From contig JACRAK010000012.1 of assembly GCA_016234725.1 (NCBI GenBank), positions 10,619 to 74,618 of the forward strand: a stretch of 64,000 bases of DNA, in the 5' to 3' direction. The notes under the pieces are model-generated. The model saw nothing but the letters and a program-made list of their open reading frames with translations, had not been told where the DNA came from and made no database searches. Source of the stretch: Candidatus Azambacteria bacterium (lineage in GTDB: Bacteria; Patescibacteriota; Minisyncoccia; GWC2-36-17; WO2-46-25). Shown one piece after another: positions 14,120-39,169 of this stretch. The stretch's first letter is position 1; every line of letters starts with the position of its first letter. The translations under genes were made by a program, and so were the position numbers.

Positions 14120-14218
14120 ATGCGCTTATCATACCGTCAAATCGCGCATTTGAGCAAGCAATTGCATCGTGCTAATTTCCCCGCTGAAAAGCGGCTTTTT
14201 ATGTGATAAGATGAAGTC

Positions 14219-14482
14219 ATGGAAATCACAGAGAAAAAACTGCAGGCGATTTTAATAAAAGGAAGAAAAGAGTTTCAGCGGTATGTTGGCGCGCTTGGAA
14301 ATAATTTTTCTTCACAAGTGAAGCTGGTCGCTGAATCGTTGTCCGGCATCCAGAATCAGCTCGTGGCCATTCGGGAGATGGTTGCCAAAAACACGGAGGA
14401 CATAGAGACGATGAAGAGGGATCTTCATCTCATCAAGCACGATCTTAAGCGCAAGGTTGGTATGACGAGTTTGCAATATTAG
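14219..14482 (+). CDS. Hypothetical small coiled-coil protein
   Basis: 87 aa, no recognisable motif. Confidence 0.25.
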   Translation: MEITEKKLQAILIKGRKEFQRYVGALGNNFSSQVKLVAESLSGIQNQLVAIREMVAKNTEDIETMKRDLHLIKHDLKRKVGMTSLQY

Positions 14483-14602
14483 AGCGACGCGTGGTCATGC
14501 TGGAAACGAAAGCAAAAAGATAAAAAAACACAATGGCATGGCGAGAAGCCGGAAAGTGAAGTAATAAGGCATGCGGGAGCGGATATACAAAATTATGTAA
14601 AC

Positions 14603-14632
14603 AAAAAGACGGCATTTGATTGCCGTCTTTTT
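14603..14632. terminator. Bidirectional intrinsic terminator (aaaaagacggca-tttgat-tgccgtcttttt)
   Basis: Perfect GC-rich stem flanked by A-run and T-run; near-identical copy at 21817-21848. Confidence 0.6.
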
Positions 14633-14639
14633 AAATTAT

Positions 14640-15302
14640 CTACTGATTCGCAAAATTTCTCTCTGCTTCAGATAATGAGATCCCAAAGATTTCTTTGAAT
14701 TTTTCTTCAAACTGAGGATGGTAGTAGTTTTTATTCAAGGATCGTAATAATCCCAATATTTTTTCAAAGGAATATTTTTCTATCAAAAAGGAGGTAAACA
14801 AGCATGCATGTTTATATGCATCATGGTTAGCATATACGCTCCATCCATACTCAGTGGAGAGCTTCGCGACATAATTCTCTTCTATATAATATCCCCGCTG
14901 ATTTTTATATTGATCGACTTGGCCCGCTACATACATCGCTATCCCTTCATTCAGCCATACGGGAATGGCCGCCGCGCCCACGATCTTCTTTGCGAACGCA
15001 TGCCACAGCTCATGCTTTAAGATTTTTATAAAATCACTTTTTGGGTGAGAGCTTTGCTTTTCAAAAGAGTTCGGATGAAGAATGTCTATAGAACCATCCG
15101 CAGATGTGTTTCCCACATGCCATGGTGGTGTTTTCATCCCGATCCGCTTCTCATAGTTAGCTCTGGATTCGTGGAGTCGGATAACGATAGGGAAGTCGGC
15201 GGGTATGTGCAGCTGACCCCCGAGATCAGCAAGCGCCTTTTCAACTTCTTTCTTTATTACATTAAGACCCCTCTTCGGTCCTTGCAGCGTGAAATTACTC
15301 AT
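14640..15302 (-). CDS. HExxH-motif putative zinc metallopeptidase (paralog family 1 of 4)
   Basis: 220 aa; HELWH … NEGIAMY (HExxH+E); same architecture as 22081, 25568, 28265. Confidence 0.4.
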   Translation of the reverse strand: MSNFTLQGPKRGLNVIKKEVEKALADLGGQLHIPADFPIVIRLHESRANYEKRIGMKTPPWHVGNTSADGSIDILHPNSFEKQSSHPKSDFIKILKHELWHAFAKKIVGAAAIPVWLNEGIAMYVAGQVDQYKNQRGYYIEENYVAKLSTEYGWSVYANHDAYKHACLFTSFLIEKYSFEKILGLLRSLNKNYYHPQFEEKFKEIFGISLSEAERNFANQ

Positions 15303-15553
15303 AAGAGGATTATATCACAAAGAAGCAGTCTTATTTCACCGGCATCAGCCATTTTTTTGTGCAAAATTAATTCAATGTATAAATTAACTGAATAACCCAT
15401 GTTTTTTGGTGTTAAAAGAGCTTAAAAGACATTAAGATATTAAAATTGACAAAAACAAATCTTAGTATATTATTCAACATAGTTAAGGGTAAGGAGAAAG
15501 ATCTTTAAAAACATAGATTGCAAAATTTAACCCGAGAAAAGGAGGTGGCCGAA

Positions 15554-15793
15554 ATGATCACAAACATGGATGAAAAACTGAAGTTTTATTGTCCTCGGTG
15601 CAAAGTAATGTTTTCTTGTGCTGGTGACGATGGCGTGGCAAAATGTCCAATTTGCAAGGTCAAAAGAAGTGATGGTTTTAATCAAATCGGACACAACTGC
15701 TTTCAGTGCGTAGCCTGCAAATGCCGATTTGAAAACATTTCAAAAGAAGGACTAAAATGTCCTAACGGATGTGTAAAGGAGGATGTGGAATGA
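15554..15793 (+). CDS. Small double zinc-ribbon protein, translationally coupled to trpS
   Basis: 79 aa from MITNMDEK; strong SD aaggagg; CPRC…CPIC…CFQCVAC…CPNGC; stop overlaps trpS ATG. Confidence 0.4.
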   Translation: MITNMDEKLKFYCPRCKVMFSCAGDDGVAKCPICKVKRSDGFNQIGHNCFQCVACKCRFENISKEGLKCPNGCVKEDVE

Positions 15794-16791
15794 AAAGCAA
15801 GAGTGTTATTCTGTCAGGAATACGAGCAACAGGGAGGCTTCATTTCGGAAATTTTCTTGGCGCGGTTCAAAATTTTGTTAAGTTTCAGCAACCAGGGAAT
15901 ACCTGTCTTTATTTTATCGCTGACTGGCATACCCTCACGACTTTTCAAGACCCTAAAGAGCTTCGAGGAAATTTGATAGAGATAGTGAAAGATTACATTG
16001 CTGCCGGCCTTGATCCCGAGCGGTCCATTATTTACGCTCAATCAAGTGTTCCGGAGATTGCGGAGCTCTGTCTCTATCTAAGCATGATCCAGCCTTTTGG
16101 TGATCTGGTGAGGATTCCGACGTTTAAGGATCTTATTCGAAAGAATCCAAACAATGTGAATCTGGGAATTGTGACGTATCCGGTTCTTATGGCAGCCGAT
16201 ATCCTTGGTCCAAGAGCAACGCTAGTTCCTGTTGGCGAAGATCAGATTCCAAATATTGAACTTGCGCAATCATTAGCGCGCAAGTTCAATAATCATTTCG
16301 GCGATACATTTGTTATCCCCGATATGATGATGCAGATGATTCGGGTTCCCGGTCTAGATGGGAATAAGATGGGAAAATCGGAGGCAGATAATGCAATCGA
16401 TGTAAATTCCCCAATTTCTGTAATTCGCGAGCGATACCTAAAAAAAGGAATAACAGACATTGAACGTAAGCGAGCAAAAGATCCCGGGGACCCCTATAAT
16501 CGTTGCCAGTCCGTGTATCCTTTGCACGAGCTTATCACGATTGGTGAGGCCGAAACGCGAACCATAGCAACCGCATGCCTAGAAGCCAGGATTGGATGTG
16601 TGGAATGCAAGCATCGTCTTGTGGATGGCATTGATAAGATATTGGGGCCATTCCAAGAGGCGCGCGCTAAGCTCGCTGACAAAAACGACCAAATCAGGGA
16701 AATTCTTCACGAGGGAGGGAAAAAGGCGAGAGTGCTGGTCCGTGAAACAACAATGGTCGTGCGCGAAAAGATGGGTATTGTCATCCATTAA
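15790..16791 (+). CDS. trpS: Tryptophan--tRNA ligase
   Basis: Class I motifs (GRLHFGN HIGH-variant, KMGKS); SD aaggagg before ATG 15790. Confidence 0.85.
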   Translation: MKSKSVILSGIRATGRLHFGNFLGAVQNFVKFQQPGNTCLYFIADWHTLTTFQDPKELRGNLIEIVKDYIAAGLDPERSIIYAQSSVPEIAELCLYLSMIQPFGDLVRIPTFKDLIRKNPNNVNLGIVTYPVLMAADILGPRATLVPVGEDQIPNIELAQSLARKFNNHFGDTFVIPDMMMQMIRVPGLDGNKMGKSEADNAIDVNSPISVIRERYLKKGITDIERKRAKDPGDPYNRCQSVYPLHELITIGEAETRTIATACLEARIGCVECKHRLVDGIDKILGPFQEARAKLADKNDQIREILHEGGKKARVLVRETTMVVREKMGIVIH

Positions 16792-16817
16792 CTCTAAAGA
16801 AGGAGGAGGGAAATGTT

Positions 16818-17942
16818 ATGGAACAGTTCTTGAGCTTAAAAGAACTGGGGAGCCGACTCTATAAGGTCGACATGCTTGTTGTTGCTCTCTTGAAGCGCCG
16901 AATGGATTTGGCGCTTCAAGTAGGGGAGTTCAAGGTAAGGAATGGGCAAAAGATTTTTCGTGCAAGCGTCGAATCAAAACGATTGGCTCAGGTGAAAGCT
17001 GAGGCGCGCAAGCGCAATCTAAGCCAGCACTTTGCAGCATCCATTCTGTATCAAGCTATAAATGAATCATGTAAGCAGCAAATGATTCAGTTGCAAAATA
17101 CAAATGCTCGGCGGCACAAAAAGGCAAAAACCGAAAAAGAGAGCTACCGCCTCTTGAAAAAAAACCTTCTGCTTCTTACGAGGCGATGGGCTGATTCATA
17201 TGATGATCAGTATGACAAAGCTTTTTTTGCGACGCACGCTTATCTTGATTTCGAGGATCAGATCCTCGAGCAAGAGATAAGGCAAATTGCTGATCGGGGA
17301 ATTGCTTTGGACTTGGGGTGTGCAACAGGAAGGTTGTCTACGAAGCTTTCCCCGTCATTCAGATGGGTGTATGGATACGATCTGAGTCCTCATATGCTCA
17401 TGAAGGCAAACGCAAAAGAAAAAAAAGTCCAAAATGTCAGCTTCATTGAAGCTGATTTAGAAAAAGGAATTCCTCAGTCAGACAGTTCGGTATCGTTTGT
17501 GGCAATGAATTTAGGTACGGCAAGCGATATCCGTGATATTTCCGGAGTTCTTAAGGAGGTTAAGCGCGTCCTTGTCTCTGGCGGAAGGTTTTTCTTCTCG
17601 TTTTACAATCGAGAAGCGTTGTTGTATCAATGGGATTTCATCCCATGGCCAGTTGGACTTGCTGCTGAAATCAACATCCACAAACATTGCCTAGACGTTC
17701 ATTTAGGCGCAAAGGTTTTGTCAGTATATGCTCGTCCGTACACCTCGAAGGAGGCGAGGAATCTTTTCCCTAAAGGAATGAAGCTTTCGAAGGTTCTTAC
17801 TCACCCAACGATCAGCTCCATTCTTCCTAATAATCTGTTTGAAGGAAAAGCATCCATTCAAAAGTCTGTGGCTGATATCGATCGACACCTTGCAAAGGCT
17901 CACGATGGCGCATATATCATCGTAACAGGTAAAAAAATGTAG
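16818..17942 (+). CDS. Fusion protein: N-terminal AroQ-type chorismate mutase-like domain + class I SAM-dependent methyltransferase
   Basis: N-term RLYKVDMLVVALLKRRMDLALQVGEFK (AroQ pattern R..ID..D..LL.LL..R..L..VG..K); C-term LDLGCATGR and VLVSGGRFFF methyltransferase motifs. Confidence 0.55.
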   Translation: MEQFLSLKELGSRLYKVDMLVVALLKRRMDLALQVGEFKVRNGQKIFRASVESKRLAQVKAEARKRNLSQHFAASILYQAINESCKQQMIQLQNTNARRHKKAKTEKESYRLLKKNLLLLTRRWADSYDDQYDKAFFATHAYLDFEDQILEQEIRQIADRGIALDLGCATGRLSTKLSPSFRWVYGYDLSPHMLMKANAKEKKVQNVSFIEADLEKGIPQSDSSVSFVAMNLGTASDIRDISGVLKEVKRVLVSGGRFFFSFYNREALLYQWDFIPWPVGLAAEINIHKHCLDVHLGAKVLSVYARPYTSKEARNLFPKGMKLSKVLTHPTISSILPNNLFEGKASIQKSVADIDRHLAKAHDGAYIIVTGKKM

Positions 17943-17946
17943 CTTT

Positions 17947-17977
17947 AAAGACCCCTGTATCCCGGGGGTCTTTTTTA
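17947..17977 (+). terminator. Intrinsic terminator after CM-MTase gene
   Basis: agacccc-loop-ggggtct followed by TTTTTT. Confidence 0.6.
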
Positions 17978-18007
17978 TATCTGGTGTCTTGAGGCGCTCT
18001 AAAGCTC

Positions 18008-18035
18008 TTGACAAATTTTTTTATGGTGCTAGATT
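18008..18035 (+). promoter_or_regulatory. Promoter TTGACA-16-TAGATT for the TrpD-like gene leader
   Basis: Consensus -35; about 355-nt untranslated leader follows. Confidence 0.45.
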
Positions 18036-18041
18036 TAGCTC

Positions 18042-18397
18042 AGGTCTTTTATAGTAGCAAAACCTTTGATGTGGGTCCCTCGAGTAGTCGAGGGATTGGG
18101 CTCATATCGCTCGACATGACATATGGCGAGCAAGGTGGCTTCTGCGAAAGTGGAAACCCGGATTCCTCCGTAATCATGGGATAATTGATGTCAGCCGAAA
18201 GGCACTTGAGTCAATGAGGGAAGCTTTTGCTTCCGAAAAAGGGTGGTAGCACGTAGATAAAACTCTTCGTCCCTTTGCGTAATTTTTTGCGCACAGAGAT
18301 GAGGAGTTTTTTGTTAAAACCCTCAGCATTTAAGGCGAGTTCTTTTACAAATCACGCACAAATCGTGCACAACCGTTTGACCCAAAGGGAGGGTGTT
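18042..18397 (+). promoter_or_regulatory. Long structured 5' leader with internal intrinsic terminator; weak T-box-like motif AGGGUGGUAGCACG
   Basis: AAAAAGGGUGGUAGCACG at 18231-18253 overlapping a terminator (AAAGGG…CCCUUUgcg + UUUUUU at 18283-18288) upstream of SD/ATG 18398. Confidence 0.3.
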
Positions 18398-19783
18398 ATG
18401 AAAAAAGTTTCGCGCATCATTTTGTCTGGACACAAATTGTTAAAGCAAAAAGCTCGGGAAATCTTGGCTATCGACTACGATGTATCCAAACGGGCCGTGG
18501 GCAACGAAGGCATTCTTCATTTGCTGGAAAGTACAACAGTTGGCATGCTGGATCGGAAAGTAAAGCACGGAGAAAATCTTTCGTTCGAGGAAGCATTTTG
18601 CGGAATGTGTTATGTGCTTGCAGCAACAAACGCCCATTTTTATGAAGCATATCGCGGTCTGTTTGAACGAGCCTACGGCAACACAAACTTCACGAGTGAA
18701 AAAGCGCTGGCAATAGCCTCGTCCTTTTTGAGCCTTATGGCGGCGAAAGAATCACTGAATTACCTTACAGCTGAAGAAATTGCTGGAATGGTTGCCGCCG
18801 GAATGATGGACACCGTTATTTCGCTTGATGTGCCAAGGGTCGTTGAAACCTGCGGCATGGGAGGCGACAAAGGATTTCGCCGTTCCCGCGTTGGCATTTC
18901 CAAGAAAACGATCAACGTTTCAACGCTGAGTGCTCTCGTGCTTTCTGCCATCGGACTTCCTGCCGCTAAGCACGGATCCTACGCAAATACATCCGCAGTA
19001 GGCAGCACAGAGGCCATCGAGTTATTTGGGGCAAAAACCTCAATGATATCGGAAGCAGAGGTGTTGGACGTCTTGGAAAAAGCAAACTTTTGCTTTTTTG
19101 ATGCCCACTGGTGCAAAACCATCCATGATTTATCACATCTTTTAATGATGGAAACGATCAATCATGTGATTGGGCCGATGACCCCACCTTTTAGTTCAAA
19201 AACGGAGGTGAACAAGCTCATGGGGGTGAATGAAAAAATTCACCCCAAGACAGTTGCTGAAGCGTATGCGATTCTCCATCAAAAAAGGAAGCAGAATGTT
19301 GGGGGCGTCATCATTGTGTGCGGGCTTGACGAAAAAGCTCGAGGAATTGACCCCCTGAATTTTGCTACGGTTAAGAAGCATGCAATTGTTGATGAAGTAT
19401 CTCCGTATGTTTCTGTGGTTTCCGCGACGCTTAAGGGCGAGTACCTTGGAACATGGATGCTTTCTCCGGAGGATTTTGGGGTTAGCATTGATGCAGAAAA
19501 GATTCAGATCGTTAATAAGCAGGAGGAGATCCAAGAAGCAAATATTGCAGCGTTAAGCGGCGCAAACTCCGAGCTCGCAGACTACCTTGCGGTAAATGCG
19601 GCGCTGGGATTGTACGCAGCGGAATATTTATCGCGAAACGATGCGATTACGCCGAATGGGCTTAATCATCATTACCTGCGAGAATGTTTCAGGCGTTGCC
19701 GAAAGGCAATTTCATCCGGTGCGGCAAAAAATGTTCTTGATGGATATGTGCGGGTAAGTAAAAATGTTCTTTTGTTGACATGA
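18398..19783 (+). CDS. Anthranilate phosphoribosyltransferase family protein (TrpD/TrpD2-like, glycosyltransferase family 3), N-terminally extended
   Basis: CGMGGDKGF and KHGSYANTSAVGSTEAIELFG motifs; SD aaagggaggg; 461 aa. Confidence 0.6.
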   Translation: MKKVSRIILSGHKLLKQKAREILAIDYDVSKRAVGNEGILHLLESTTVGMLDRKVKHGENLSFEEAFCGMCYVLAATNAHFYEAYRGLFERAYGNTNFTSEKALAIASSFLSLMAAKESLNYLTAEEIAGMVAAGMMDTVISLDVPRVVETCGMGGDKGFRRSRVGISKKTINVSTLSALVLSAIGLPAAKHGSYANTSAVGSTEAIELFGAKTSMISEAEVLDVLEKANFCFFDAHWCKTIHDLSHLLMMETINHVIGPMTPPFSSKTEVNKLMGVNEKIHPKTVAEAYAILHQKRKQNVGGVIIVCGLDEKARGIDPLNFATVKKHAIVDEVSPYVSVVSATLKGEYLGTWMLSPEDFGVSIDAEKIQIVNKQEEIQEANIAALSGANSELADYLAVNAALGLYAAEYLSRNDAITPNGLNHHYLRECFRRCRKAISSGAAKNVLDGYVRVSKNVLLLT

Positions 19784-19797
19784 GCAGCATTTTAATA

Positions 19798-19826
19798 AAG
19801 AGGGGGGAAAAATTCTCCCCTCTTTA
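19798..19826 (+). terminator. Intrinsic terminator (aaagagggg-ggaaaaattc-tcccctcttt)
   Basis: Perfect stem and T-run. Confidence 0.6.
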
Positions 19827-19871
19827 TTATTAGAGAAAAAGAGATATAATAAACTTATTGACATTTCATTA

Positions 19872-20690
19872 ATGGATACTAAATTTAAAAAAATATTTAA
19901 TAAGGAAAAAGGGGTCATTGTCGGAGCGATTCATTTTCCGCCACTCCTTGGTTTTTCGGAGTTTCCGGGTTTTGAGATCGCTCGTTTAAATGCGCTTAAG
20001 GACCTCGAAGCGTTCGTTCATGGTGGAGCAGATGCCATTGTTTTTGAAAATAATTATGATATCCCGCACACGGAATTTGTCGGGCCAGAGATTTGCGCAT
20101 CAATGCTTCTTTTAGGCGCAGAAATTAAAAAAGCAACGACCCTGCCTGTTGGGATAAGTGTTTTGTGGAATGATTACAAAACAGCGTTGTCTATCGCGAA
20201 AGTTTTAGACCTTCAATTTATTCGTATACCGGTTTTTGTTGATACCGTTAAAACAAGCTATGGCATCATTGAAGGAAAGCATGAAGAGATCATGGCATAC
20301 AGGAAGAACATTCAAGCGGAACGCATTGCGCTGTTTACTGATATCCATGTTAAGCATGCTGAAACCGTGTCGGCGTTTTCAATAATCGAATCCGCACAGA
20401 GGGCAATCACAAGAGGATCCGATGGGCTAATTGTGACAGGAAAGTGGACGGGCAACGCACCCACCCTTGCTGAGCTCAAGAGCATAAGGGAGGCAGTGGC
20501 AGATTTCCCCGTCATATGCGGCAGCGGAGTTGATAGCAAAAATATTCATGAATTGTTTGAATGTGCAGATGGAGCAATTGTCAGCACTTCTTTAAAAGAA
20601 GGAGTTCGCAAGCAAGGGGAGATAAATGTGAAGGGTTACGAACAGCGCATTGATGAAGAGAGGGTCAGAGAATTGGTGATAAGTATTTAA
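19872..20690 (+). CDS. BtpA/SgcQ family TIM-barrel protein
   Basis: N-terminal GVIVGAIHFPPLLGFSEFPG matches the BtpA signature. Confidence 0.5.
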   Translation: MDTKFKKIFNKEKGVIVGAIHFPPLLGFSEFPGFEIARLNALKDLEAFVHGGADAIVFENNYDIPHTEFVGPEICASMLLLGAEIKKATTLPVGISVLWNDYKTALSIAKVLDLQFIRIPVFVDTVKTSYGIIEGKHEEIMAYRKNIQAERIALFTDIHVKHAETVSAFSIIESAQRAITRGSDGLIVTGKWTGNAPTLAELKSIREAVADFPVICGSGVDSKNIHELFECADGAIVSTSLKEGVRKQGEINVKGYEQRIDEERVRELVISI

Positions 20691-20718
20691 AAACACCGGA
20701 GAGCGTCCGGTGTTTTTA
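20691..20718. terminator. Bidirectional terminator (aaaacaccgga-gagcg-tccggtgttttt)
   Basis: Perfect 9-bp stem with flanking A/T runs between convergent genes. Confidence 0.6.
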
Positions 20719-20733
20719 ATGAGCTAATTAATT

Positions 20734-21708: not shown

Positions 21709-21816
21709 TTTAACCTCCTATTTTAAATGAGCAACTAAATTCCTTATTTTTTTGAAGATATCACCTGTGTGTTTTTTTGTAAATACTCGTCAAGCATTAC
21801 ACGCGCCCAAAAAACA

Positions 21817-21848
21817 CCATATCTAGAAAAAAGACGGCATTTGATTGC
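21817..21848. terminator. Bidirectional terminator hairpin, near-copy of 14603-14632
   Basis: aaaaaagacggca-tttgat-tgccgcctttttt. Confidence 0.5.
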
Positions 21849-21871
21849 CGCCTTTTTTGCCGATGATTCTC

Positions 21872-21950
21872 TATTTCGCTGCCGTCAGTCACTTTTTGTA
21901 GCGGGGGAGTGCGCCGGAAACTATCTGCGCATATGTTTCTCGGAGGTGTT
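21872..21950. repeat. Conserved about 75-bp noncoding element, copy A
   Basis: about 88% identical to 24551-24624 (…cactttttgtagcgggggagt…ccggaaactatctg…atatgtttctcg.aggtgt.tggtc). Confidence 0.55.
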
Positions 21951-31704: not shown

Positions 31705-33882
31705 GTGTTCTATTTTATAGCAACGTCTTTAGTAAATGCTTTTATTGCCGGCTTGCTCGGATTCCTTGTCATTTCAAAAAATTGGAGGGATCTCGCGAAC
31801 AAGTTATTTTTTGGACTTAGCATTTCTGTTGTCTTCTGGGCATTAAATTATTGGCAATGGCTTTCTTCTCAAAACGCAAATTCCGCGCTGGTTTTTTCAC
31901 GGCTATTTTCGGTAGGAGCTCTTTTTATTCCCATTTTTTATTTTCATTGGGTTCTTATTTTCAGCGGAACAAACAAACAATACAAGACATTTCTTAAAGT
32001 TTTATATTTCATCGCTTTTGTTTTTCTTTCCCTTTCCTTCTCAAAACTATTTATCGAAGGAGTGGGGCAAAAACTTTTTTTCCCTTTTTGGCCAACCCCC
32101 GGAATTCTTTACAATATCTATTTAATTGTTATCTATTTTGGACTCACGATCTATTCTTTGTTTATTCTCTGGAGGAGTTATATTCGTAGTAATGACAGCC
32201 ATCAGAAAGCAATCATTAAATATATCATATTGGGATCCTTCATTGGGTTTAGCGGGGGAGCAACAAACTTTTTCTTATGGTACGATATCCCGATTTTGCC
32301 GTATGGAAATATTCTTGTTAGTTTCTATCCCTTAGCTCTTGCTCTCGCCAGCTTCCGGCACGGCCTTTTCAACATCAAGGTCATCGCCACAGAATTGCTG
32401 ACGCTCACTGTCTGGATCGCGGTATTGGTTGAATTGATATTAGCTGAAACATGGGAAAAGCGGCTTTTGGAAGCGGGGTTGTTGGCGTTCGTGGTGGTGT
32501 CCGGTATTTTTATTATCCGCAGCGTGTTGAAGGAGGTTGAGCAGAAGGACAAGTTTAAAGATTTATCAGAACGACTGGAAAGCGCGAATGCGCAGCTTAA
32601 ACAAAAAACGCTGTATCTGACGACATTACAGGGGTTTACGCATGACATCGGCAGGACGCTTGATTTTAAGGAGATCACTCAAAAGATCGTTGACGGCATT
32701 TCGGAAAAATTTGGGTATCTTGCCGGCCTGCTTCTCTTGGTGTCCGAAGACGGCAAGATGATCTTTCCCGTTACTATCACGGAGAACACGATCACGAAGA
32801 TCGCGCTTAAGATATTGCCAAAACAGATGCATGAATATGCCGGCGATTTTGAGCATGACGATACGCTATCGATCCGGGCGGTCAAGGACAACGCGATACA
32901 GCAAAGCAATGCCATAGCCGATTTTCTCAGCCCGCCGATCTCCGAAACGCTGTGCGTGACGATCCAGAAGGCAACCGGGCTGAAATCCGGCGTAGCGATA
33001 CCGATACGCTCTGAAGGGAAGGCGATCGGCGTACTCGATATTTTTCTTGATCGGCCGAAAGAAGAGATAGGAGGCGACGAGCTCGAGGTGATGAAAACGC
33101 TTGCAAACCAGATCGGCATCGTACTCAAAAATGCATCGCTGTTCGAACAAGTGAAGGAAGCAAACGAAAAGCTGAAAGAATTGGACGATCTGAAAACGGA
33201 CTTTATTTCCATCGCGTCGCATCAGTTGCGTACGCCGCTCACGGCGATCAAGGGGTATACCTCTATGATCATGGAAGGGTCATACGGCGAGGTGTCTGAT
33301 AAAGTGAGAGTAACAATAGGAAAGGTGTTTCAATCCGCCCAGCGCCTTATTTATATCGTGAATGACTTGCTTGATATTTCCCGTATCGAGCAGGGGCGGT
33401 TTACCATTGCGCTTGAGCCGATAAAGGTGGCGAATGTGCTGAAAGATGTGGTGGAGGAGCTCCAGCAGAATGCAAAAAGCAAGAACCTTTCACTTGAGCT
33501 TGCGGTAGCACCGGAAAATATGGAGGTAACGGCGAGCGCCGACTTTAACAAGATACGGCAGGTGTTTTTGAATGTGATCGACAATGCGATCAAATATACC
33601 AACGAAGGATATGTGCGCGTGGGAGTTGAGAAGAGAGCGAATGATGTGCTTATGTCCGTAAAGGATTCCGGCATCGGTATTTCAGAGGCAAGCATGAAGA
33701 ATCTGTTCCAGAAATTCAGCCGGGCAAAAGGCGTGACAAAGCTCCATACCGACGGCTCCGGCCTCGGGCTCTTTATCGTCAAGAAGATCATGGAAGCCCA
33801 TGGCGGCACCGTGTGGGCGGAATCGGAAGGCGAAGGCAAGGGCTCGCAGTTTTATGTTTCCATCCCTTTGCAAAAGGAGTAG
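31705..33882 (+). CDS. Sensor histidine kinase with N-terminal 7TM domain, GAF-like region, HisKA and HATPase_c
   Basis: 7 hydrophobic helices; H-box SHQLRTPLTAIKGY; N/G1/G2 boxes; AT-rich 5' half vs GC-rich 3' half. Confidence 0.75.
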   Translation: MFYFIATSLVNAFIAGLLGFLVISKNWRDLANKLFFGLSISVVFWALNYWQWLSSQNANSALVFSRLFSVGALFIPIFYFHWVLIFSGTNKQYKTFLKVLYFIAFVFLSLSFSKLFIEGVGQKLFFPFWPTPGILYNIYLIVIYFGLTIYSLFILWRSYIRSNDSHQKAIIKYIILGSFIGFSGGATNFFLWYDIPILPYGNILVSFYPLALALASFRHGLFNIKVIATELLTLTVWIAVLVELILAETWEKRLLEAGLLAFVVVSGIFIIRSVLKEVEQKDKFKDLSERLESANAQLKQKTLYLTTLQGFTHDIGRTLDFKEITQKIVDGISEKFGYLAGLLLLVSEDGKMIFPVTITENTITKIALKILPKQMHEYAGDFEHDDTLSIRAVKDNAIQQSNAIADFLSPPISETLCVTIQKATGLKSGVAIPIRSEGKAIGVLDIFLDRPKEEIGGDELEVMKTLANQIGIVLKNASLFEQVKEANEKLKELDDLKTDFISIASHQLRTPLTAIKGYTSMIMEGSYGEVSDKVRVTIGKVFQSAQRLIYIVNDLLDISRIEQGRFTIALEPIKVANVLKDVVEELQQNAKSKNLSLELAVAPENMEVTASADFNKIRQVFLNVIDNAIKYTNEGYVRVGVEKRANDVLMSVKDSGIGISEASMKNLFQKFSRAKGVTKLHTDGSGLGLFIVKKIMEAHGGTVWAESEGEGKGSQFYVSIPLQKE

Positions 33883-33924
33883 GTAGCATTGGTTATTTTA
33901 TAAAATAAAACCCATATTAAGTAT

Positions 33925-34947
33925 ATGAATACACTAAACAGGAAATATAAAGCCGGGGTTATTGGCCTCGGCCATCAATCTTTGGAGGATCATATTCCCG
34001 CTATTAAGGCGTCTCCCGATGTTGAATTAGTAGGTGTGGTCGAGGTAGATGAACAGAAGTTAAAATCGTTTCTTGAAGAAAACAAAGATATAGATGGTTA
34101 TAATAATATAGATGATTTTTTAAAAAACAAACAACCAGATTTTATTGTCATTACTGTCCCGCACCACCTGCATTATGAAATAGTAAAAAAGGCAACGGAA
34201 AGAAGAATTCACATTCTTAAAGAAAAGCCATTCGCTATTTCCTTTGAACAAGGAAAGGAAATAAAAAAATTGGCAGAAAAAACCGAGACCCAGATTATGA
34301 TTACCCTCCAAAGAAGATTTAATCCAATATATTCTACTTTTTTTCAATTAATAGATAAGATTGGCGAACCCTTTTTTATTGAATCAAAATATACTTTTTA
34401 TACTGATTCGCCGCATGAAGGGTGGAGGGGGAGAAAAGATTTAGCTGGAGGAGGGTGTTTAATAGATATGGGGTATCATGCGATTGATCTTTTGATGTGG
34501 TATTTTGGGTTGCCTGATTTAGTTTTTGCTGAAACATCGTGTGCAGCAAAAGAAAATACTTGTTACGATGCGGAGGATACAGCACAAATCACTTTTCGCT
34601 ATAATAGTGAAAAGAATATTTTTGGTTCGCTTCTTGTTTCACGGGTAATCCCTCCAAAGCAAGAGTTTATAAATATATATGGTACAAGGGGAATTATCCA
34701 TATTGAGAGAGGAAAAATTGAGAGGTATGCTTCAAATGGCGAAACGCAAGAGGCTCTCAAAAGGGAGCAGCAATGGTCATCAGCGGCGCAAGATCAGATC
34801 GAATATTTTTTGAAGGTAATAGAAGGAAAAAAAGAAAATCTAAGTAATCCAGAGTTTCATTTACAACACCTCGCCTTTATTGAAGCAGCATATAAAGCAA
34901 GAGAATCGAAACAATATATAAATCCAAAAAAATATCTGGAAAAATGA
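33925..34947 (+). CDS. Gfo/Idh/MocA family NAD(P)-dependent oxidoreductase
   Basis: N-terminal Rossmann GVIGLGHQ…; family-typical length. Confidence 0.65.
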   Translation: MNTLNRKYKAGVIGLGHQSLEDHIPAIKASPDVELVGVVEVDEQKLKSFLEENKDIDGYNNIDDFLKNKQPDFIVITVPHHLHYEIVKKATERRIHILKEKPFAISFEQGKEIKKLAEKTETQIMITLQRRFNPIYSTFFQLIDKIGEPFFIESKYTFYTDSPHEGWRGRKDLAGGGCLIDMGYHAIDLLMWYFGLPDLVFAETSCAAKENTCYDAEDTAQITFRYNSEKNIFGSLLVSRVIPPKQEFINIYGTRGIIHIERGKIERYASNGETQEALKREQQWSSAAQDQIEYFLKVIEGKKENLSNPEFHLQHLAFIEAAYKARESKQYINPKKYLEK

Positions 34948-36206
34948 AAAAGGAAAAACAAAAACTTGCAATTTTAGGAGGATCTCCAACTATAAAAAGC
35001 AAGAGGTCTCATTATCAATGGCCAAAGATAACAAAAAGTATAGAGAAAGCAGTTATAAAGCAGCTTTATGAAGGCATTTCCATATACGATAAAAGCGGCA
35101 TCTTTGAAAGGTTTGAGGAGAATTTTGCTAAGTATCACGAAAGAAAGTATGCGCTATTATGCAATTCTGGCACAACAGCGATTCACTCGATGTTTGTTGC
35201 TGCTGGATTCAAACAAGGAGATGAGGTAATTTGTCCAGCTTACACATTTTTTGCTACGGTAACCCCTCTTTTATTTGTTGGTGCAAAGCCAATACTTTGT
35301 GATTGTGATGAAAACGGGAATATAGATCCAGGGGAAATTAAAAAGAAAATCAATTCAAAAACTAAGGGAGTGGTTATAACCCATATGTGGGGGATTCCTT
35401 GCCAAATGGATGAGATTGTAAAAATTTGCAAAAAAAATAAATTACTGTTATTAGAAGACTGTTCTCATGCGCATGGAGCAACATATAAAAGCAAACCTCT
35501 CGGCTCTTTTGGTGATTTAGCAGCATGGAGCCTTCAGGGGTTAAAAAATGTGAGTGGTGGAGAGGGTGGAGTTCTTGTCGCAAATAATGATGAATTCTAC
35601 TATAAAGCACTCCTCCTTGGGCATTACAATAAGCGATGCAAGCAAGAGATTCCCAAAACACATAAATTTTATAAATATGCAATAACAGGCATGGGATTAA
35701 AATACAGAGCTCATCCTCTTGCGATTGCCATTGCATACAATGTGTTTAAAGACCTAGATGCTTATAGGAAAATTAAAAATAAATTTGCTTTAAAAATAAT
35801 AAAAGAGCTTAGAAGCATAAATGGCCTTGCTGCTCCAAAAATAAAATCAGGGGTCACTCCCTCTTGGTATGCGCTCGTGTTTCAATATAAGAAGGATAAG
35901 TTTCAAGATCTTCCCATCGAGAAAATTTTTAGTGCTTTCCAAGCAGAAAACCTAACAGAAGTGGATCGTCCAGTATCAACCGCCCCTCTTAATCTTTTAC
36001 CCCTATTTCAAAGCCCTGAAGAGTTGTTTCCTGTCTATAAAAATAATCTGTTTTCGTATAAACCGGGAGATTTCCCGCGCGCGGAAAATTTTTATCACAA
36101 CGCAATCAAACTTCCCTTATGGACAAGTAAGAAAGACGCAAAAATGGTAGCTATGTATATAAAAGGAATCAAAAAAGTTATTAAAAATTATAGAAAATTA
36201 CTATGA
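34944..36206 (+). CDS. DegT/DnrJ/EryC1/StrS family PLP-dependent sugar aminotransferase
   Basis: …DLAAWSLQGLKNVSGGEGG (Schiff-base Lys region), fold-type I pattern. Confidence 0.65.
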   Translation: MKKEKQKLAILGGSPTIKSKRSHYQWPKITKSIEKAVIKQLYEGISIYDKSGIFERFEENFAKYHERKYALLCNSGTTAIHSMFVAAGFKQGDEVICPAYTFFATVTPLLFVGAKPILCDCDENGNIDPGEIKKKINSKTKGVVITHMWGIPCQMDEIVKICKKNKLLLLEDCSHAHGATYKSKPLGSFGDLAAWSLQGLKNVSGGEGGVLVANNDEFYYKALLLGHYNKRCKQEIPKTHKFYKYAITGMGLKYRAHPLAIAIAYNVFKDLDAYRKIKNKFALKIIKELRSINGLAAPKIKSGVTPSWYALVFQYKKDKFQDLPIEKIFSAFQAENLTEVDRPVSTAPLNLLPLFQSPEELFPVYKNNLFSYKPGDFPRAENFYHNAIKLPLWTSKKDAKMVAMYIKGIKKVIKNYRKLL

Positions 36207-36646
36207 ATCAGAAAAAAATTGTACAAAAAGTCGTTCTTGCAGGAGTAGTGATGAATGAAGGGAAAATTTTAATTCTTCAAAGGCATAGTGGTGAAGACGT
36301 ATATCCGGGTATATGGGAATTGCCAAGTGGAAAAAGAGAAGCTCTTGAGCTATCTGAGGAGTCTCTTGCTCGCGAGGTGAAGGAGGAAAGCGGTCTTGAC
36401 ATTAAAATTATTTCGCCTTTTTCCATGTTTGATTATCAAATTGAAAAGCCCGATGAAATTCGCGATTCAACTCAAATAAATTTTCTTGTGATTCCAATTA
36501 ATAACCCCGAGGTTATTTTAAGTTCTGAACATCAGGCATTTGTATGGATTGGGGTTGATGAAATTGACAGATATGATATTACTGAAGACACAAAAAAAGT
36601 TATTAAAAAAGGATTTGAGTTTGCTCTATTGTTAAAATTAGTATAA
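36203..36646 (+). CDS. NUDIX hydrolase
   Basis: Nudix box GKREALELSEESLAREVKEESGL. Confidence 0.65.
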   Translation: MNQKKIVQKVVLAGVVMNEGKILILQRHSGEDVYPGIWELPSGKREALELSEESLAREVKEESGLDIKIISPFSMFDYQIEKPDEIRDSTQINFLVIPINNPEVILSSEHQAFVWIGVDEIDRYDITEDTKKVIKKGFEFALLLKLV

Positions 36647-37314
36647 TGATGGGAAAAGAGAGTCCTTTTTTTTGGATAAACATAGAAGGTACAGATGGAG
36701 TTGGAAAAACAACGATATCCAGAAAACTCCGCGATCATCTACAAGAGCTTTATCCTAACGAGAAATTTATTTTATTTAATGAATTTTCTAATTTTGAAAT
36801 AGGGAAAATAATAAAGCGGGTAATAAAAAAAGAAAAGTTTTTTAAATTAAATTCAAATACTCACTATCCTCTCGCGGAAACACTTATGCTCGTTACTGAT
36901 CTAATGTGTCAATTTGAAGCGGAGGTGTTTAGTAGAAAAAGCAGAAAAAAAGTATATATTATTTCAGATAGAGGCCCCCATTCTTTTTTAACCTATCAAT
37001 TAATAAGGCTAAACGATTTTTATCCGCAAGGGAAGTGGAAAAAATGGGTAGAAGATATATTAAGACCGTTTGGCAGACCAGATCTTTCTATTTTTCTTGT
37101 TTCAGATATTGGTGAAATAAAAAATAGATTGATAAAAAGAGGAGATGATCGAGTATTAGAGGATTTGCAATTTATTACGAAAATACAAAGCTCTTATATA
37201 AATTTAGCAAAAAAAGATAAAAAATCTTTTGTTTTAAAAAATAAAAATAATGCCCTACAGCGAACAGTAGATGATGCTACTCAAATTGTAAAACAATATT
37301 TACTGGGGAAGTGA
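36646..37314 (+). CDS. Thymidylate kinase-like P-loop kinase
   Basis: P-loop IEGTDGVGKTT (Tmk EGxDGxGKTT). Confidence 0.5.
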   Translation: MMGKESPFFWINIEGTDGVGKTTISRKLRDHLQELYPNEKFILFNEFSNFEIGKIIKRVIKKEKFFKLNSNTHYPLAETLMLVTDLMCQFEAEVFSRKSRKKVYIISDRGPHSFLTYQLIRLNDFYPQGKWKKWVEDILRPFGRPDLSIFLVSDIGEIKNRLIKRGDDRVLEDLQFITKIQSSYINLAKKDKKSFVLKNKNNALQRTVDDATQIVKQYLLGK

Positions 37315-37379
37315 TAATTCCATCAAAAAAGCATTTATAAAAGAAACAGCGCAATAATTTTGTTATTGCGCTGTTAAAA

Positions 37380-37841
37380 CTACTCAATCTTAAGGATGAT
37401 GATGGCTTTTCTTTTTCCTCCAACCTTGCCTTCTCTGGCATCGTTAATCATAGCTCCTACTAATAAACGAGCAAGAGGAGCATTGTAAGAAATGGTGTTT
37501 TTTTGATCGTGAAAGATCATAAAACTACCTATCCGGATGGTTTGAATCTTGCCAGTTTCCTCGTCTTGAAATGTTGCGCATTTCCCGATACTTACTTTTT
37601 CACTGCTTGTTTCCGGTGATACTACTTTTGCATTATTTCTTATCTTGATAAGTTCACGTAGCCTTGAAGACCACATGTATTGCTGACGCTCCCCATCCTC
37701 AAAAGCAAAATTATCATGGAATGTCTCCGCTCCTTCCTGACAGCTTTTCCCCATTTCTTGTCCTATTTCTTTTATCTTATCGCAAATTTGCTCGATTTGC
37801 TTATCTAAACCCTCAAAATCTTCTTTCAAAAAAAAGTACAT
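37380..37841 (-). CDS. Transcription elongation factor GreA/GreB family
   Basis: Coiled-coil N-term; C-terminal …ISYNAPLARLLVG (GreA SPLGxALLG). Confidence 0.65.
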   Translation of the reverse strand: MYFFLKEDFEGLDKQIEQICDKIKEIGQEMGKSCQEGAETFHDNFAFEDGERQQYMWSSRLRELIKIRNNAKVVSPETSSEKVSIGKCATFQDEETGKIQTIRIGSFMIFHDQKNTISYNAPLARLLVGAMINDAREGKVGGKRKAIIILKIE

Positions 37842-37957
37842 GATCGCCTCCTTTATGTGTGACTAATTTTTTAAAGATCGTCTTACGTGCTACAATACCC
37901 CCAAACACCGAGGTCTGTCAATCATTAAAAACTGGAAAAGTTTATTAATACATCATT

Positions 37958-38082
37958 TCATCGTAAAAAAGATCATGGAAGCTCATGGCGGCACCGTGTG
38001 GGCGGAATCGGAAGGCGAAGGCAAGGGCTCGCAGTTTTATGTTTCCATCCCGCTTGCGGCAGTGCAGACGGTGGTGAAGTAA
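37958..38082 (+). pseudogene. Duplicated 3'-terminal fragment of the histidine kinase gene (copy of 33775-33882)
   Basis: about 97% nt identity to the HK C-terminal coding end (…MEAHGGTVWAESEGEGKGSQFYVSIP…); GC-rich island in AT-rich surroundings. Confidence 0.7.
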
Positions 38083-38117
38083 TAAAGGAGCACATGAAGT
38101 AATGAGGTCGTAGCAAA

Positions 38118-38588
38118 ATGCACTCCTTTAAAGTATTATTCAAATATATGATTGAACAAAAAACTCATTTAGGTATTTATGGCGTGATACAGAGTGACAA
38201 TAATATTCTCTTAATAAAAAAGTCTCGCGGACCCTATAAGGGGAAGTTTGATTTGCCCGGCGGAAAGTTAGAACATGGAGAGGGTTTGTGTGATGGATTA
38301 GCGAGGGAGATCAATGAAGAAACGGGGCTCACAGCAAAGGATTTTAAATTGTACGATAACTACAGTGTTACCGTTGATTTTAACGATGGGAAAAAAGAAA
38401 TTAGTATGTATCATGTTGGGCTGATATATTTAGTTATCGTGGCGAGTATAGACGATATAAAAGAAACCACAGATGAAGAGGACTCATTGGGCTCGTTTTG
38501 GCATACAATTGCGAATTTAGATGTTGAACAACTTTCTCCTTTTGCAAAAATGGCGGTTAAGACTATAAGAAATGAACCGCAGAAATAA
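38118..38588 (+). CDS. NUDIX hydrolase
   Basis: Nudix box GGKLEHGEGLCDGLAREINEETGL. Confidence 0.65.
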   Translation: MHSFKVLFKYMIEQKTHLGIYGVIQSDNNILLIKKSRGPYKGKFDLPGGKLEHGEGLCDGLAREINEETGLTAKDFKLYDNYSVTVDFNDGKKEISMYHVGLIYLVIVASIDDIKETTDEEDSLGSFWHTIANLDVEQLSPFAKMAVKTIRNEPQK

Positions 38589-38606
38589 AAACGACTACAT
38601 AATTTT

Positions 38607-39158
38607 ATGAGTGATGTATCGCATACAATACATAAACCGTATCAATCTTTTTGGGTAGAGAAGTTCGAAGAAGAGAAGATAATGCTGAAGGAAATATTTG
38701 GCGATAAAACCATTGCTATTGAGCATATAGGAAGCACTTCAATCCCAGGGCTTTTATCGAAGCCGATAGTTGATATTGCGGTGATGATCGAGAATCCGGA
38801 AGACGCGGACTCCTTTACTGAACCTCTTGTTAATCTAGGATATAGATTTCATTCATCAAGCACCGAAAGATATTTCTATACCAAAGGCACTCCCATTGAA
38901 TATCATGTATCGATAGCGTATGCAGACCGAGGAGGTTTTTGGCCTCGGCAGATCTTGTTTCGAGATTATTTACGGACCAATCCGGAAGCTCGGGATGAGT
39001 ATGCAAGATTGAAAGAAAGATTGTTGCAGAAAGATCCGACCGGGAAAGGCGAATACTTGAGCGGCAAAACCGAATTTGTTCAAAAAATATTAGAAAGAGC
39101 GGGGTGGAAAGAGGGTCAGACATACAGAACAATGCTTCCTTTGCAAAAGAGGGTATAA
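38607..39158 (+). CDS. GrpB/UPF0157 family protein
   Basis: …IEHIGSTSIPGLLSKPIVDIAVMIE… signature. Confidence 0.55.
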   Translation: MSDVSHTIHKPYQSFWVEKFEEEKIMLKEIFGDKTIAIEHIGSTSIPGLLSKPIVDIAVMIENPEDADSFTEPLVNLGYRFHSSSTERYFYTKGTPIEYHVSIAYADRGGFWPRQILFRDYLRTNPEARDEYARLKERLLQKDPTGKGEYLSGKTEFVQKILERAGWKEGQTYRTMLPLQKRV

Positions 39159-39169
39159 TAAGGTAGATT

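Follow-up and report, generated by a model that had tools for sequence, protein, structure and literature searches.

A compositionally distinct, hypervariable region between pilB and argS in a Candidatus Azambacteria chromosome, probably a flexible genomic island of nested cassettes

Introduction

Flexible genomic islands of the replacement type are exchanged by homologous recombination (Lopez-Perez, Martin-Cuadrado and Rodriguez-Valera, 2014; PMC4033161). Here, a low-GC interval of about 25 kb between the genes pilB and argS is described in a 64,000-nucleotide stretch of DNA (contig JACRAK010000012.1, positions 10,619–74,618; hereafter the window, in whose numbering all positions are given) from a metagenome-assembled genome (MAG) of Candidatus Azambacteria, a member of the Patescibacteria or Candidate Phyla Radiation (CPR). 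The interval is probably best regarded as a hypervariable chromosomal region of distinct composition, a flexible genomic island or recombination hotspot that was put together as a nested patchwork and not as one mobile element. It resembles the replacement and additive flexible islands of aquatic bacteria (PMC4033161) in that different genes are found at the same chromosomal position, no integrase is encoded and the GC content is below that of the core, in that part of the cargo consists of exposed-glycan genes (GFO and DegT genes here, a sulfotransferase and APS kinase in the relative L001 and glycosyltransferases in the relative L093), and in that exchange may be attributed to homologous recombination in conserved flanks. 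It differs from them in that the comparators are different species (83–88% nucleotide identity) and not strains of one species, that several additive cassettes are flanked by direct repeats of 30–120 nt, and that one slot holds radical S-adenosylmethionine (SAM) peptide clusters and an aminoacyl-tRNA synthetase cluster instead of envelope genes. The substitution peaks described at the borders of those islands are not clearly seen here.

In MAGs of groundwater Patescibacteria hundreds of islands have been found by composition, and up to 13% of genome length has been attributed to transfer; exchange is mostly intra-phylum and translation genes are enriched among those transferred (PMC12455944, mSystems 2025). 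The interval described here comes from the same phylum and type of habitat, and its tryptophanyl-tRNA synthetase (TrpRS) gene fits the enrichment of translation genes. That survey relied on IslandViewer and MetaCHIP without reconstruction at the level of junctions, whereas empty sites, repeat-bounded cassettes and a pilB-tsaE hotspot are resolved here; a text search of the paper found no description of the pilB-tsaE locus.

With classical tRNA-linked islands, integrative and conjugative elements (ICEs) and prophages the interval shares atypical GC content and codon usage, a size of tens of kb, presence or absence among relatives and direct repeats at junctions, but it lacks a tRNA target as well as genes for mobility, phage functions or conjugation, and the region as a whole is not enclosed by a repeat pair. 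The tycheposons of Prochlorococcus reportedly carry genes for tyrosine recombinases and have tRNA genes as their main target. As is said of tycheposons, cargo here lies between an intact gene and, farther downstream, a second and incomplete copy of that gene's 3' end, and different cargo is found at the same site; unlike what is reported for them, there is no recombinase, and the targets are the end of a histidine-kinase gene, the end of another gene, a terminator hairpin and a promoter. The interval is not a new kind of genetic element. It is of a known kind, the flexible genomic island, well resolved here.

Base Composition of the Interval

The GC content is 0.411 from position 14151 to 39160, compared with 0.509 to the left (1–14150) and 0.524 to the right (39161–64000). 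In 1-kb windows the interval has a GC content of 0.411±0.042 (n=25) and the flanks of 0.518±0.041 (n=39; Mann-Whitney p=1e-9). An original prediction made from the sequence had placed a drop in GC at about 14.2–39.2 kb and had named a GC profile as the check: the shift is large and significant, and an unconstrained likelihood fit of two change points put the borders at 14050 and 39400, no more than 250 bp from the predicted ones. The flanks had been put at 55–60% GC, which is too high, as they average 51–52%; they are also uneven, with 0.40 in an IS200-like gene and 0.44 in dnaN.

GC at third codon positions (GC3), measured per gene, is 0.21–0.55 in the interval (mean 0.39) and 0.51–0.73 in the flanks (mean 0.64; p=5e-9). 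A shift in codon preference had likewise been predicted, and is seen both in GC3 and in the choice of codons for alanine (GCG from 0.63 in the flanks to 0.27 in the interval), arginine (CGC+CGG from 0.72 to 0.30) and threonine (ACG from 0.49 to 0.24), with strong shifts also for proline, valine and isoleucine. It does not extend to lysine, the example that had been given, for which AAA/(AAA+AAG) is 0.66 vs. 0.62 (chi-square p=0.09).

Tetranucleotide z-score profiles of equal 5-kb pieces were correlated to the pooled flanks, and gave r=0.62–0.76 for pieces of the flanks compared with r=0.24–0.52 for pieces of the interval, the most deviant piece (r=0.24) being in the block that carries TrpRS. 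The three thirds of the interval correlate poorly with each other (r=0.42–0.60) and the interval is therefore internally heterogeneous. GC3 also falls into sub-blocks, of 0.21–0.30, 0.34–0.36 and 0.41–0.47.

The Locus in Relatives

At least four cassettes bounded by direct repeats sit on a shared low-GC backbone (Table 1). These are a 7.2-kb block with TrpRS, bounded by copies of a terminator-like hairpin; module 1, one of three modules for putative ribosomally synthesized and post-translationally modified peptides (RiPPs), bounded by the repeat D3; modules 2 and 3, with the repeat D1; and a nucleotide-sugar cassette between copies of the repeat D2. The repeats measure 30, 75–160, 73–120 and 95 nt. 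The gene content listed in the original prediction was confirmed, and comprises three radical-SAM/SPASM genes, TrpRS, a chorismate mutase::methyltransferase fusion, a TrpD-like gene, GFO and DegT genes, two NUDIX genes and GrpB. Also confirmed were the recurrence of the hairpin, the second copy of the end of a kinase gene and the higher GC content of the 3' half of that gene.

Three proteins of the interval are 100% identical to NCBI entries from a Candidatus Azambacteria MAG (96,420-bp contig). No genome of the same species was among those retrieved, and the close comparators are as distant in their core genes as given above. Exact-sequence searches with ArgRS, PilB and TrpRS of the window gave no match, perhaps because the ORFs begin upstream of the annotated starts. 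The relatives L093, L089 and L001 all carry pilB, the core of the histidine kinase and argS as anchors. A comparison of synteny, also named as a check beforehand, showed that the relatives are not identical at the locus but have other cargo between the same anchors. PilB is 95.7% identical at the amino acid level in L093 and 88% in L089.

In the relatives L089 and L090 from Hainich groundwater (core about 83% identical at the nucleotide level) the region from ruvC to the ABC transporter gene is collinear with the window. The 9.1 kb between pilB and argS hold genes for a SPASM protein and a 496-aa radical-SAM protein, a 51-aa open reading frame (ORF), a GNAT gene, the hairpin and a short D3, and thereafter an acyltransferase, a methyltransferase, the kinase, a NUDIX gene on the opposite strand and GrpB. 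The TrpRS block, RiPP modules 2 and 3 and the 4.1-kb sugar cassette are all missing from L089. The closest relatives, L093–L096 (PilB gene 88% identical at the nucleotide level), have pilB, a small ORF, the hairpin, D3, an orthologue of the module 2 gene hyp339 with an 89-aa remnant of the radical-SAM gene of module 2 (rSAM2), and D3 again; then follow an aminotransferase gene, ThiF and nitroreductase-like genes, a 545-aa kinase with 93% identity to the window kinase in its catalytic core and, beyond the kinase, a stretch of 10 kb or more with genes for glycosyl-, methyl-, carbamoyl- and pyruvyl-transferases. In L001 (ArgRS 80% and PolA 90% identical) the cargo between kinase and argS consists of genes for a methyltransferase, a NUDIX protein, a sulfotransferase, an APS kinase, an Hsp70-like protein and another NUDIX protein.

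About 20 of the 25 kb have no counterpart at the locus in L089, though the hyp339 region is found again in L093 and the sugar cassette in the contig L092. A backbone of about 5 kb is common to relatives and consists of the acyltransferase gene, the methyltransferase-kinase operon, GrpB, the small ORF with the hairpin, and D3. In each relative examined the GC content of the locus is below that of the adjacent core. The backbone genes are of low GC in L089 as well as in the window (methyltransferase 0.36 and GrpB 0.41), so that low GC alone cannot date acquisition; the backbone is apparently ancestral, being older and shared with genus-level relatives. At the borders, identity to L089 and L001 is 0.68–0.76 in GrpB and the 5' end of argS compared with 0.80–0.89 further in, and the pilB side is without a clear drop.

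The kinase core divides the region into two slots, of which the one from pilB to the kinase tends to hold peptide natural-product genes and the one from the kinase end to argS genes for surface-glycan modification. Four lineages, the window and its relatives, have glycan or nucleotide-sugar genes in the slot after the kinase and peptide-modification genes in the slot before it.

The ancestral gene order was taken from 80 metagenomic CPR loci retrieved with PilB, which are distant (43–52% identity). The usual order is polA←tsaE← →pilB→ruvB→yebC→ruvC→PBP...dnaN dnaA (PBP, penicillin-binding protein). In 38 of the 80 loci tsaE and pilB are divergent neighbours with a start-to-start gap of -19 to 4761 bp (median 1.0 kb), compared with 27,032 bp in the window, and none of the genes of the interval is present in these distant pilB-tsaE loci. 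The spacer between argS and tsaE (41036–41151) is about 116 nt long in the window vs. about 12 nt in L089 and L001, and identity falls to 0.43–0.47 in the 300-nt segment concerned.

Table 1. Positions of the features of the variable interval and of its anchors.
Feature	Position	Strand	Remarks
pilB (type IV pilus ATPase), left core anchor	12446..14119	-	Pfam T2SSE 391 bits; GC3 0.69
Variable low-GC interval, pilB to argS	14142..39169	.	25.05 kb; equivalent in L089 9.1 kb
87-aa ORF, backbone common to L093	14219..14482	+	From ORF list; no family match
Terminator-like hairpin copy 1, left repeat (family D7)	14603..14632	.	29/30 identical to copy 2
Inserted block, 7.2 kb	14633..21827	.	Empty site in L093
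Peptidase MA	14640-15302	-	Domain search
Zn-ribbon ORF	15518-15793	+	
TrpRS	15769-16791	+	Passes TIGR00233 equivalog, 243 vs. 177 bits
Chorismate mutase::methyltransferase fusion	16818-17942	+	
Anthranilate-phosphoribosyltransferase (AnPRT)-like, TrpD-like	18398-19783	+	Nearest solved structures AnPRTs, E=2e-21
BtpA	19872-20690	+	
AstE/AspA-like	20734-21708	-	
Terminator-like hairpin copy 2, right repeat	21828..21857	.	Junction spanned by L083
D3 long copy	21872..22030	-	Last 46 codons and stop of some gene; 83% (nt) to L089 4391-4549, 86% to L093 4359-4534
RiPP module 1	22081..24491	-	
HExxH protein of module 1	within 22081-22992		HEIMH motif
Terminator of module 1	22846-22879		
43-aa ORF of module 1	22895-23026		Cys/Asp-rich
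Radical SAM/SPASM of module 1	23027-24211		
orf101	24186-24491		
D3 short copy	24537..24626	-	Last ~21 codons, same gene end
Acyltransferase (PlsC-like), backbone	24687..25400	+	PF01553; 81% (aa) to L089 orthologue, same position
D1 copy 1	25481..25553	+	Promoter/operator of HExxH gene hyp339; TTGAAA-16-TATCAT
RiPP module 2	25568..27939	.	
HExxH protein hyp339	25568-26587	+	
Radical SAM/SPASM of module 2 (rSAM2)	26602-27681	-	
60-aa ORF of module 2	27757-27939	-	
D6+D1 copy 2	28113..28229	+	Divergent regulatory region between modules 2 and 3
RiPP module 3	28265..30534	.	
HExxH protein hyp237	28265-28978	+	
Terminator of module 3	28949-28976		
53-aa ORF of module 3	29003-29164	-	Cys-rich
Radical SAM/SPASM of module 3	29227-30534	-	
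D6+D1 copy 3	30660..30778	+	Promoter/operator of methyltransferase-kinase operon
Class I SAM methyltransferase, backbone	30823..31695	+	Pfam; 87% (aa) to L089
7TM-GAF histidine kinase	31705..33882	+	Pfam HisKA_7TM, GAF, HisKA, HATPase_c
D2 left copy, kinase 3' end	33772..33866	+	
Nucleotide-sugar cassette, 4.1 kb	33883..37956	.	Between D2 copies
GFO/IDH/MocA oxidoreductase	33925-34947	+	
DegT aminotransferase	34944-36206	+	
NUDIX (first)	36203-36646	+	
dTMP-kinase-like	36646-37314	+	
GreA-like	37380-37841	-	
D2 right copy, duplicated kinase 3'-end fragment (95 nt)	37957..38051	+	96% identical to left copy
Second NUDIX hydrolase	38118..38588	+	Pfam; window-specific here; L089 NUDIX differs, other strand
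GrpB, backbone, last low-GC gene	38607..39158	+	Pfam 139 bits; 73% (aa) to L089, same position
argS (ArgRS), right core anchor	39170..41035	+	Pfam; 80-87% (aa) in L001, L002, L089
tsaE	41152-41622		3' of argS; order conserved in relatives
polA	41591-44134		3' of argS; order conserved in relatives

The TrpRS Block and Its Hairpin

Homology between the window and L093 runs through positions 11977–14632 at 88% nucleotide identity. The alignment shows an exact empty site in L093, made up of the left flank of the window, one hairpin and the right flank of the window (D3); in the window itself there are two hairpins, with an additional 7,195 bp separating them. The block is also missing from the locus in L089. 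One hairpin each is found in L089, L090, L091, L093 and L094, and two in the window only. Its 30-nt sequence, AAAAAGACGGCATTTGATTGCCGTCTTTTT, has a folding energy of -17.6 kcal/mol (z=-6.7) on one strand and of -17.5 kcal/mol (z=-7.1) on the other. The loop is reverse-complemented between genomes, reading GACGGCAATCAAATGCCGTC in L093 (2614–2637) vs. GACGGCATTTGATTGCCGTC in the window (14606–14629), as if the palindrome had been flipped.

The cluster of four genes for TrpRS, chorismate mutase::methyltransferase, AnPRT-like protein and BtpA is kept in other Patescibacteria (L084–L087; 51–82% amino acid identity), in unrelated contexts and sometimes with an altered gene order. In L088 a HAD-PfkB-HAD group is inserted between the AnPRT-like gene and BtpA. 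In those genomes the cluster has a GC content of 0.45–0.50 and matches its neighbourhood, whereas the copy in the window lies 8–10 points below the core. Because the block is absent in L089 and L093 and is located elsewhere in other genomes, a gain at this site is favoured by parsimony. The contig L083, assembled independently in Logan, equals positions 17585–25403 of the window with proteins that are 100% identical, and spans the junctions at 21.8 and 24.5 kb.

The AnPRT-like family grades in identity from 83% to 45% across Patescibacteria, and the database start of the protein lies 41 codons downstream of the start of the ORF. A canonical TrpD was considered and rejected, as the protein scores 120 bits with TIGR01245 against a cut-off of 199 and no trpA, B, C, E, F or G gene is present. 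An AMP or thymidine phosphorylase was also rejected, as the nearest solved relatives are all anthranilate phosphoribosyltransferases. Fusions of HAD with the AnPRT-like protein exist (P0088, P0092 and others). For BtpA a sequence search of the PDB gave no match.

It could be argued that insertion was carried out by a dedicated site-specific system encoded elsewhere, either an IS200-like Y1 (HUH) transposase acting on the hairpin or an unseen tyrosine recombinase that targets the 3' ends of genes. The hairpin forms a strong stem-loop whichever strand is folded, it is duplicated exactly at the insertion and its loop is inverted in L093; in addition, several genomes have cargo that is flanked by duplicates of a gene's 3' end, either that of the kinase or D3. 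Y1_Tnp genes are present in the window and also next to the TrpRS cluster of L087 and next to tsaE/pilB of L007. The gene in the window, its sole transposase-like gene, lies outside the interval at 184–915 (- strand; GC 0.40) between 61-nt direct repeats at 106–166 and 950–1010 that are 90% identical. Elements of the IS200/IS605 type carry their own hairpins and leave none at an empty site. Here a hairpin is kept at the empty site of L093, no Y1 gene is present in the block and the hairpin is absent beside the TrpRS clusters of other genomes, on which grounds the hairpin was rejected as an IS200-type transposon end. Four types of repeat also fit generic recombination better than one enzyme, and no recombinase was found in or beside any cassette in five genomes. 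A dedicated system is on balance quite unlikely.

RiPP Modules and the Repeats D3 and D1

Both the radical-SAM and the SPASM domain were found by Pfam in the three maturases, whose mutual identity is 22–24%. Each of their genes adjoins a short ORF on the same strand (43, 60 and 53 aa), which in two cases is followed by a terminator, and each module also has an HExxH protein without a Pfam family. In this arrangement the modules resemble known radical-SAM/SPASM RiPP clusters, those of the ranthipeptide maturase PapB and of DynA and DarE (dynobactin and darobactin), in which maturases adjoin short ORFs with a C-terminus rich in Cys/Asp or in His/Trp/Tyr, and a putative HExxH peptidase. They differ in that the three maturases score far under every equivalog cut-off and that none of the short ORFs could be matched to a known family of precursors. 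The best NCBIfam match of the module 1 maturase is PapB, with 142 bits against a cut-off of 340; the module 2 maturase matches a sulfatase maturase (208 bits of 349) and DynA (203 bits), both under the cut-off; and the best score in module 3 is 106 against 400 bits. None of them belongs to a named family (PapB, DynA, SCIFF and others), and neither the three short candidate precursor ORFs nor other small ORFs have an NCBIfam match. The 60-aa ORF of module 2 ends in KHDHWVDQPSHDHYRDASTK, with the pattern HDHW...HDHY. A sequence search of the PDB with hyp339 gave no match, and a literature search found nothing specific on radical-SAM RiPPs in the CPR.

The D3 copies, which flank module 1 in the window, flank a different radical-SAM pair in L089. 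D3 reads as the end of a gene, ...GKIDGVVFNKQKEGPMTKHLRETYAQIVSGALPRYKK*, and four genomes (the window, L089 at 4391–4549 and 8093–8179, L091 and L093) retain both the long and the short version; the full-length gene was not found in the retrieved loci. Module 3 is absent from L089 and L093. Of module 2, the hyp339 orthologue in L093 is 68% identical at the amino acid level. The 89-aa remnant (L093 3854–4123, - strand) is 91% identical to the C-terminus of rSAM2 and lies next to that orthologue, the two being a decaying copy of module 2.

D1 is 73–120 nt long, its copies are 84–96% identical, and it lies upstream of hyp339, of hyp237 and of the methyltransferase-kinase operon. It holds GGCGGAAgttatGGCGGAA directly 5' of TTGAAA-16/17-TATGAT, and no other promoter matches of the region score as well as these three. 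Copies 2 and 3 have an extra 49 nt (D6) exactly at the start of a divergent radical-SAM operon. The direct repeat GGCGGAA-N5-GGCGGAA is found at 25511–25529, 28187–28205 and 30736–30754 and nowhere else in the window (0.07 expected by chance), while the orthologous promoters in L089 and L093 have the promoter core only, without the GGCGGAA motif. These repeats look like a response-regulator operator, which would link two HExxH genes, two radical-SAM operons and the methyltransferase-kinase operon, and the three D1 sites may form one regulon tied to the resident kinase. D1 and D3 match no Rfam family.

The Kinase and the Sugar Cassette

The first 0.6 kb of the kinase gene are variable and of low GC (residues 1–200 are 20–32% identical to L001; GC3 0.28–0.46), and the last 1.5 kb (about 32300–33882) are core-like (residues 250–725 are 86–98% identical to L001; GC3 0.54–0.70). 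As identity and GC3 switch at the same point, at about 32.3 kb, this is read from the sequences as an intragenic recombination junction and not as a gradient. Kinases of 545 aa without a GAF domain (P0131, P0139; L093 10001–11638) share 92–93% identity in the catalytic core with the 725-aa kinase of the window, which suggests that sensor modules are swapped on a conserved kinase core.

In L001 and L091, too, the kinase end is present a second time, there bracketing other cargo, and the fragment in L001 keeps the C-terminus that the intact gene has in the window. The cassette between the D2 copies of the window has the lowest GC3 of the window (0.21–0.36). It is missing in L089, in which the kinase is directly followed by another NUDIX gene and GrpB. 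The contig L092, from another sample, carries the same cassette at 82.7% nucleotide identity with both ends in the kinase 3' repeat. Homologues of DegT with about 60–75% identity are found in several lineages of Patescibacteria and in MAGs of Promethearchaeota and Nanoarchaeota. Together with the spread of the TrpRS cluster, this is consistent with the mostly intra-phylum exchange described for Patescibacteria (PMC12455944). A 566-aa DegT::NUDIX fusion exists (P0322; 69% identical to the DegT of the window) and suggests that DegT and the overlapping NUDIX gene are functionally linked.

These comparisons bear on the view that the interval was inherited vertically, its low GC being due to AT-biased mutation, with little GC-biased gene conversion or codon selection, in dispensable, weakly expressed or rarely recombining genes, and the differences between genomes mainly to differential loss. 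This would account for the low-GC backbone. A low-GC zone is present at the locus in every relative examined, with orthologous backbone genes of low GC in the window and L089, the cassette in L092 is as diverged as core DNA, and direct repeats would ease deletions. On this view, however, the low-GC signature should not be split into sub-blocks whose tetranucleotide profiles differ from each other, the abrupt change in the identity of the kinase would not be expected to coincide with that in GC3, and four unrelated sets of cargo would require an implausibly large ancestral region. The scattered contexts of the TrpRS cluster (L084, L086 and L087), missing from the locus in L089 and L093, and the similarity of DegT across lineages and to archaeal MAGs also speak against it. 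Vertical inheritance is therefore regarded as unlikely.

Mobility Genes and Assembly

None of the 24 proteins of the interval was identified as an integrase, transposase or phage protein with Pfam, NCBIfam and PHROGs, and there was no Pfam match to capsid, terminase, relaxase or type IV secretion system proteins. Searches of the interval with PHROGs and PADLOC found neither phage-structural families nor established families for defence; their sole matches are generic, of the dTMP-kinase-like protein to a thymidylate-kinase PHROG and of NUDIX and kinase proteins to candidate families, as with NUDIX and PDC-S07. No tRNA (ARAGORN) and no Rfam family was found in the interval. Among tRNA and transfer-messenger RNA (tmRNA) genes, ARAGORN and Rfam found only a tmRNA, 10 kb outside the interval at 49476–49860 (- strand; Rfam 129 bits), for which ARAGORN predicts the tag peptide ANLFSKVKNAIALSFAPLSFARV. 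The 25 kb as a whole are not enclosed by any repeat pair. An imperfect inverted match of 37 nt (70%) at 14072/40537 was considered as an island bracket and taken as chance.

A contiguous low-GC block with sharp compositional borders and internal direct repeats might be expected of a single integrated mobile element, i.e., a prophage, ICE or integrative island acquired whole in one event. Such an element is hard to reconcile with the lack of integrase, transposase, conjugation and phage genes and of tRNAs from 14.1 to 39.2 kb, and of bracketing repeats. About 5 kb, including the core-like kinase segment, is moreover shared in place with relatives while the remainder differs piecewise, and GC3 varies from 0.21 to 0.55 between sub-blocks. 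Acquisition as one element is extremely improbable.

The source is a MAG, and foreign DNA could have been joined into the contig at short repeats during assembly or binning. The internal junctions do coincide with repeats of 30–120 nt, at which assemblers can mis-join, and each of the Logan contigs L083 and L092 stops at a repeat or close to one. Nevertheless, independent assemblies of other samples (L089, L090; five contigs) have pilB, low-GC genes, kinase, GrpB and argS on one contig, L093–L096 run from pilB through the small ORF, the hairpin and D3 onward to the kinase, L001 connects the kinase to argS, and L083 crosses the 21.8-kb and 24.5-kb junctions with identical sequence. As independent assemblies reproduce them, both outer borders exist in nature, and a chimera is highly improbable.

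How the Region May Have Been Assembled

All versions of the locus lack a recombinase and the repeats in use are of four different types, and for these reasons host homologous recombination is proposed as the most economical mechanism. Its substrate would be DNA acquired from other members of the Patescibacteria. Circularized fragments would be inserted as cassettes by single crossovers at short shared sequences, which would leave direct repeats, and cargo would be replaced by double crossovers within the anchors pilB, kinase core and argS.

The original prediction had spoken of an accessory island of mosaic horizontal acquisition. Mosaic horizontal acquisition is supported by the piecewise synteny and the composition of the sub-blocks, but the 3' half of the kinase is core and part of the backbone is ancestral. 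Nor is the region one island, as the kinase segment splits it into two slots, and since TrpRS passes the threshold of a housekeeping equivalog and is perhaps the only copy, it may be essential and the term accessory may be wrong for it.

Several points weigh against a flexible island assembled in this way. First, the relatives are other species (83–88% identical in core genes), a distance over which many events are compressed so that their order is not resolvable, and for each repeat-flanked cassette gain cannot be formally separated from a deletion in the relative, which would leave the same empty site. Second, the sugar cassette in L092 is about as diverged as core DNA is from L089, and the cassette may therefore be old; the backbone genes are of low GC in all relatives though apparently ancestral. 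Third, the 30-nt repeat is short for RecA-dependent recombination, and since the window covers 64 kb of a larger genome, a recombinase from elsewhere may act in trans. Fourth, the left junction (14.1–14.6 kb) and the D1 junctions rest on one assembly. As regards the proposed regulon, no response-regulator gene was found in the 64-kb window.

It is tempting to speculate further that the clade keeps a two-slot "diversity locus" near the origin and pilB, in which cargo is captured without an integrase at reusable short sequences and peptide modules are wired into the kinase regulon through the GGCGGAA-N5-GGCGGAA operator. Although this is doubtful, it would, if true, amount to integron-like capture and expression by homologous recombination in organisms with minimal genomes.

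Surrounding Genes

The interval lies about 8 kb from dnaA-dnaN, with rnpA, yidC, dnaA and dnaN at 2.4–6.7 kb of the window. On its left are rnpA, yidC, dnaA, dnaN, a class A PBP gene, ruvC, yebC, ruvB and pilB, and on its right argS, tsaE, polA, a PAS kinase gene, an ABC transporter gene, the genes for L20 and IF3, the tmRNA, ileS and genes for a class II aminoacyl-tRNA synthetase, an M16 peptidase and RNase J. A 1201-aa isoleucyl-tRNA-synthetase-like protein (51718–55323, + strand) has a His_Phos_1 domain inserted at residues 521–689, inside the catalytic domain. A 32-nt inverted repeat (55931–55962/56017–56048; 97% complementary, with a 54-nt spacer) is found just 5' of the gene for a 628-aa protein that contains DUF11.

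Biological Implications

Patescibacteria have tiny genomes and are host-dependent, and where and how they still gain genes therefore matters. Resolved to the base pair, the locus shows that a single site near the origin can grow threefold via repeat-bounded cassettes with no mobility gene. It collects peptide natural-product clusters, genes for the modification of surface glycans and even an aminoacyl-tRNA synthetase cluster. The three radical-SAM peptide modules, with their putative co-regulation, are candidates for expression studies, and the anchors pilB, kinase core and argS could be used to fish the variable cargo of the clade from metagenomes.

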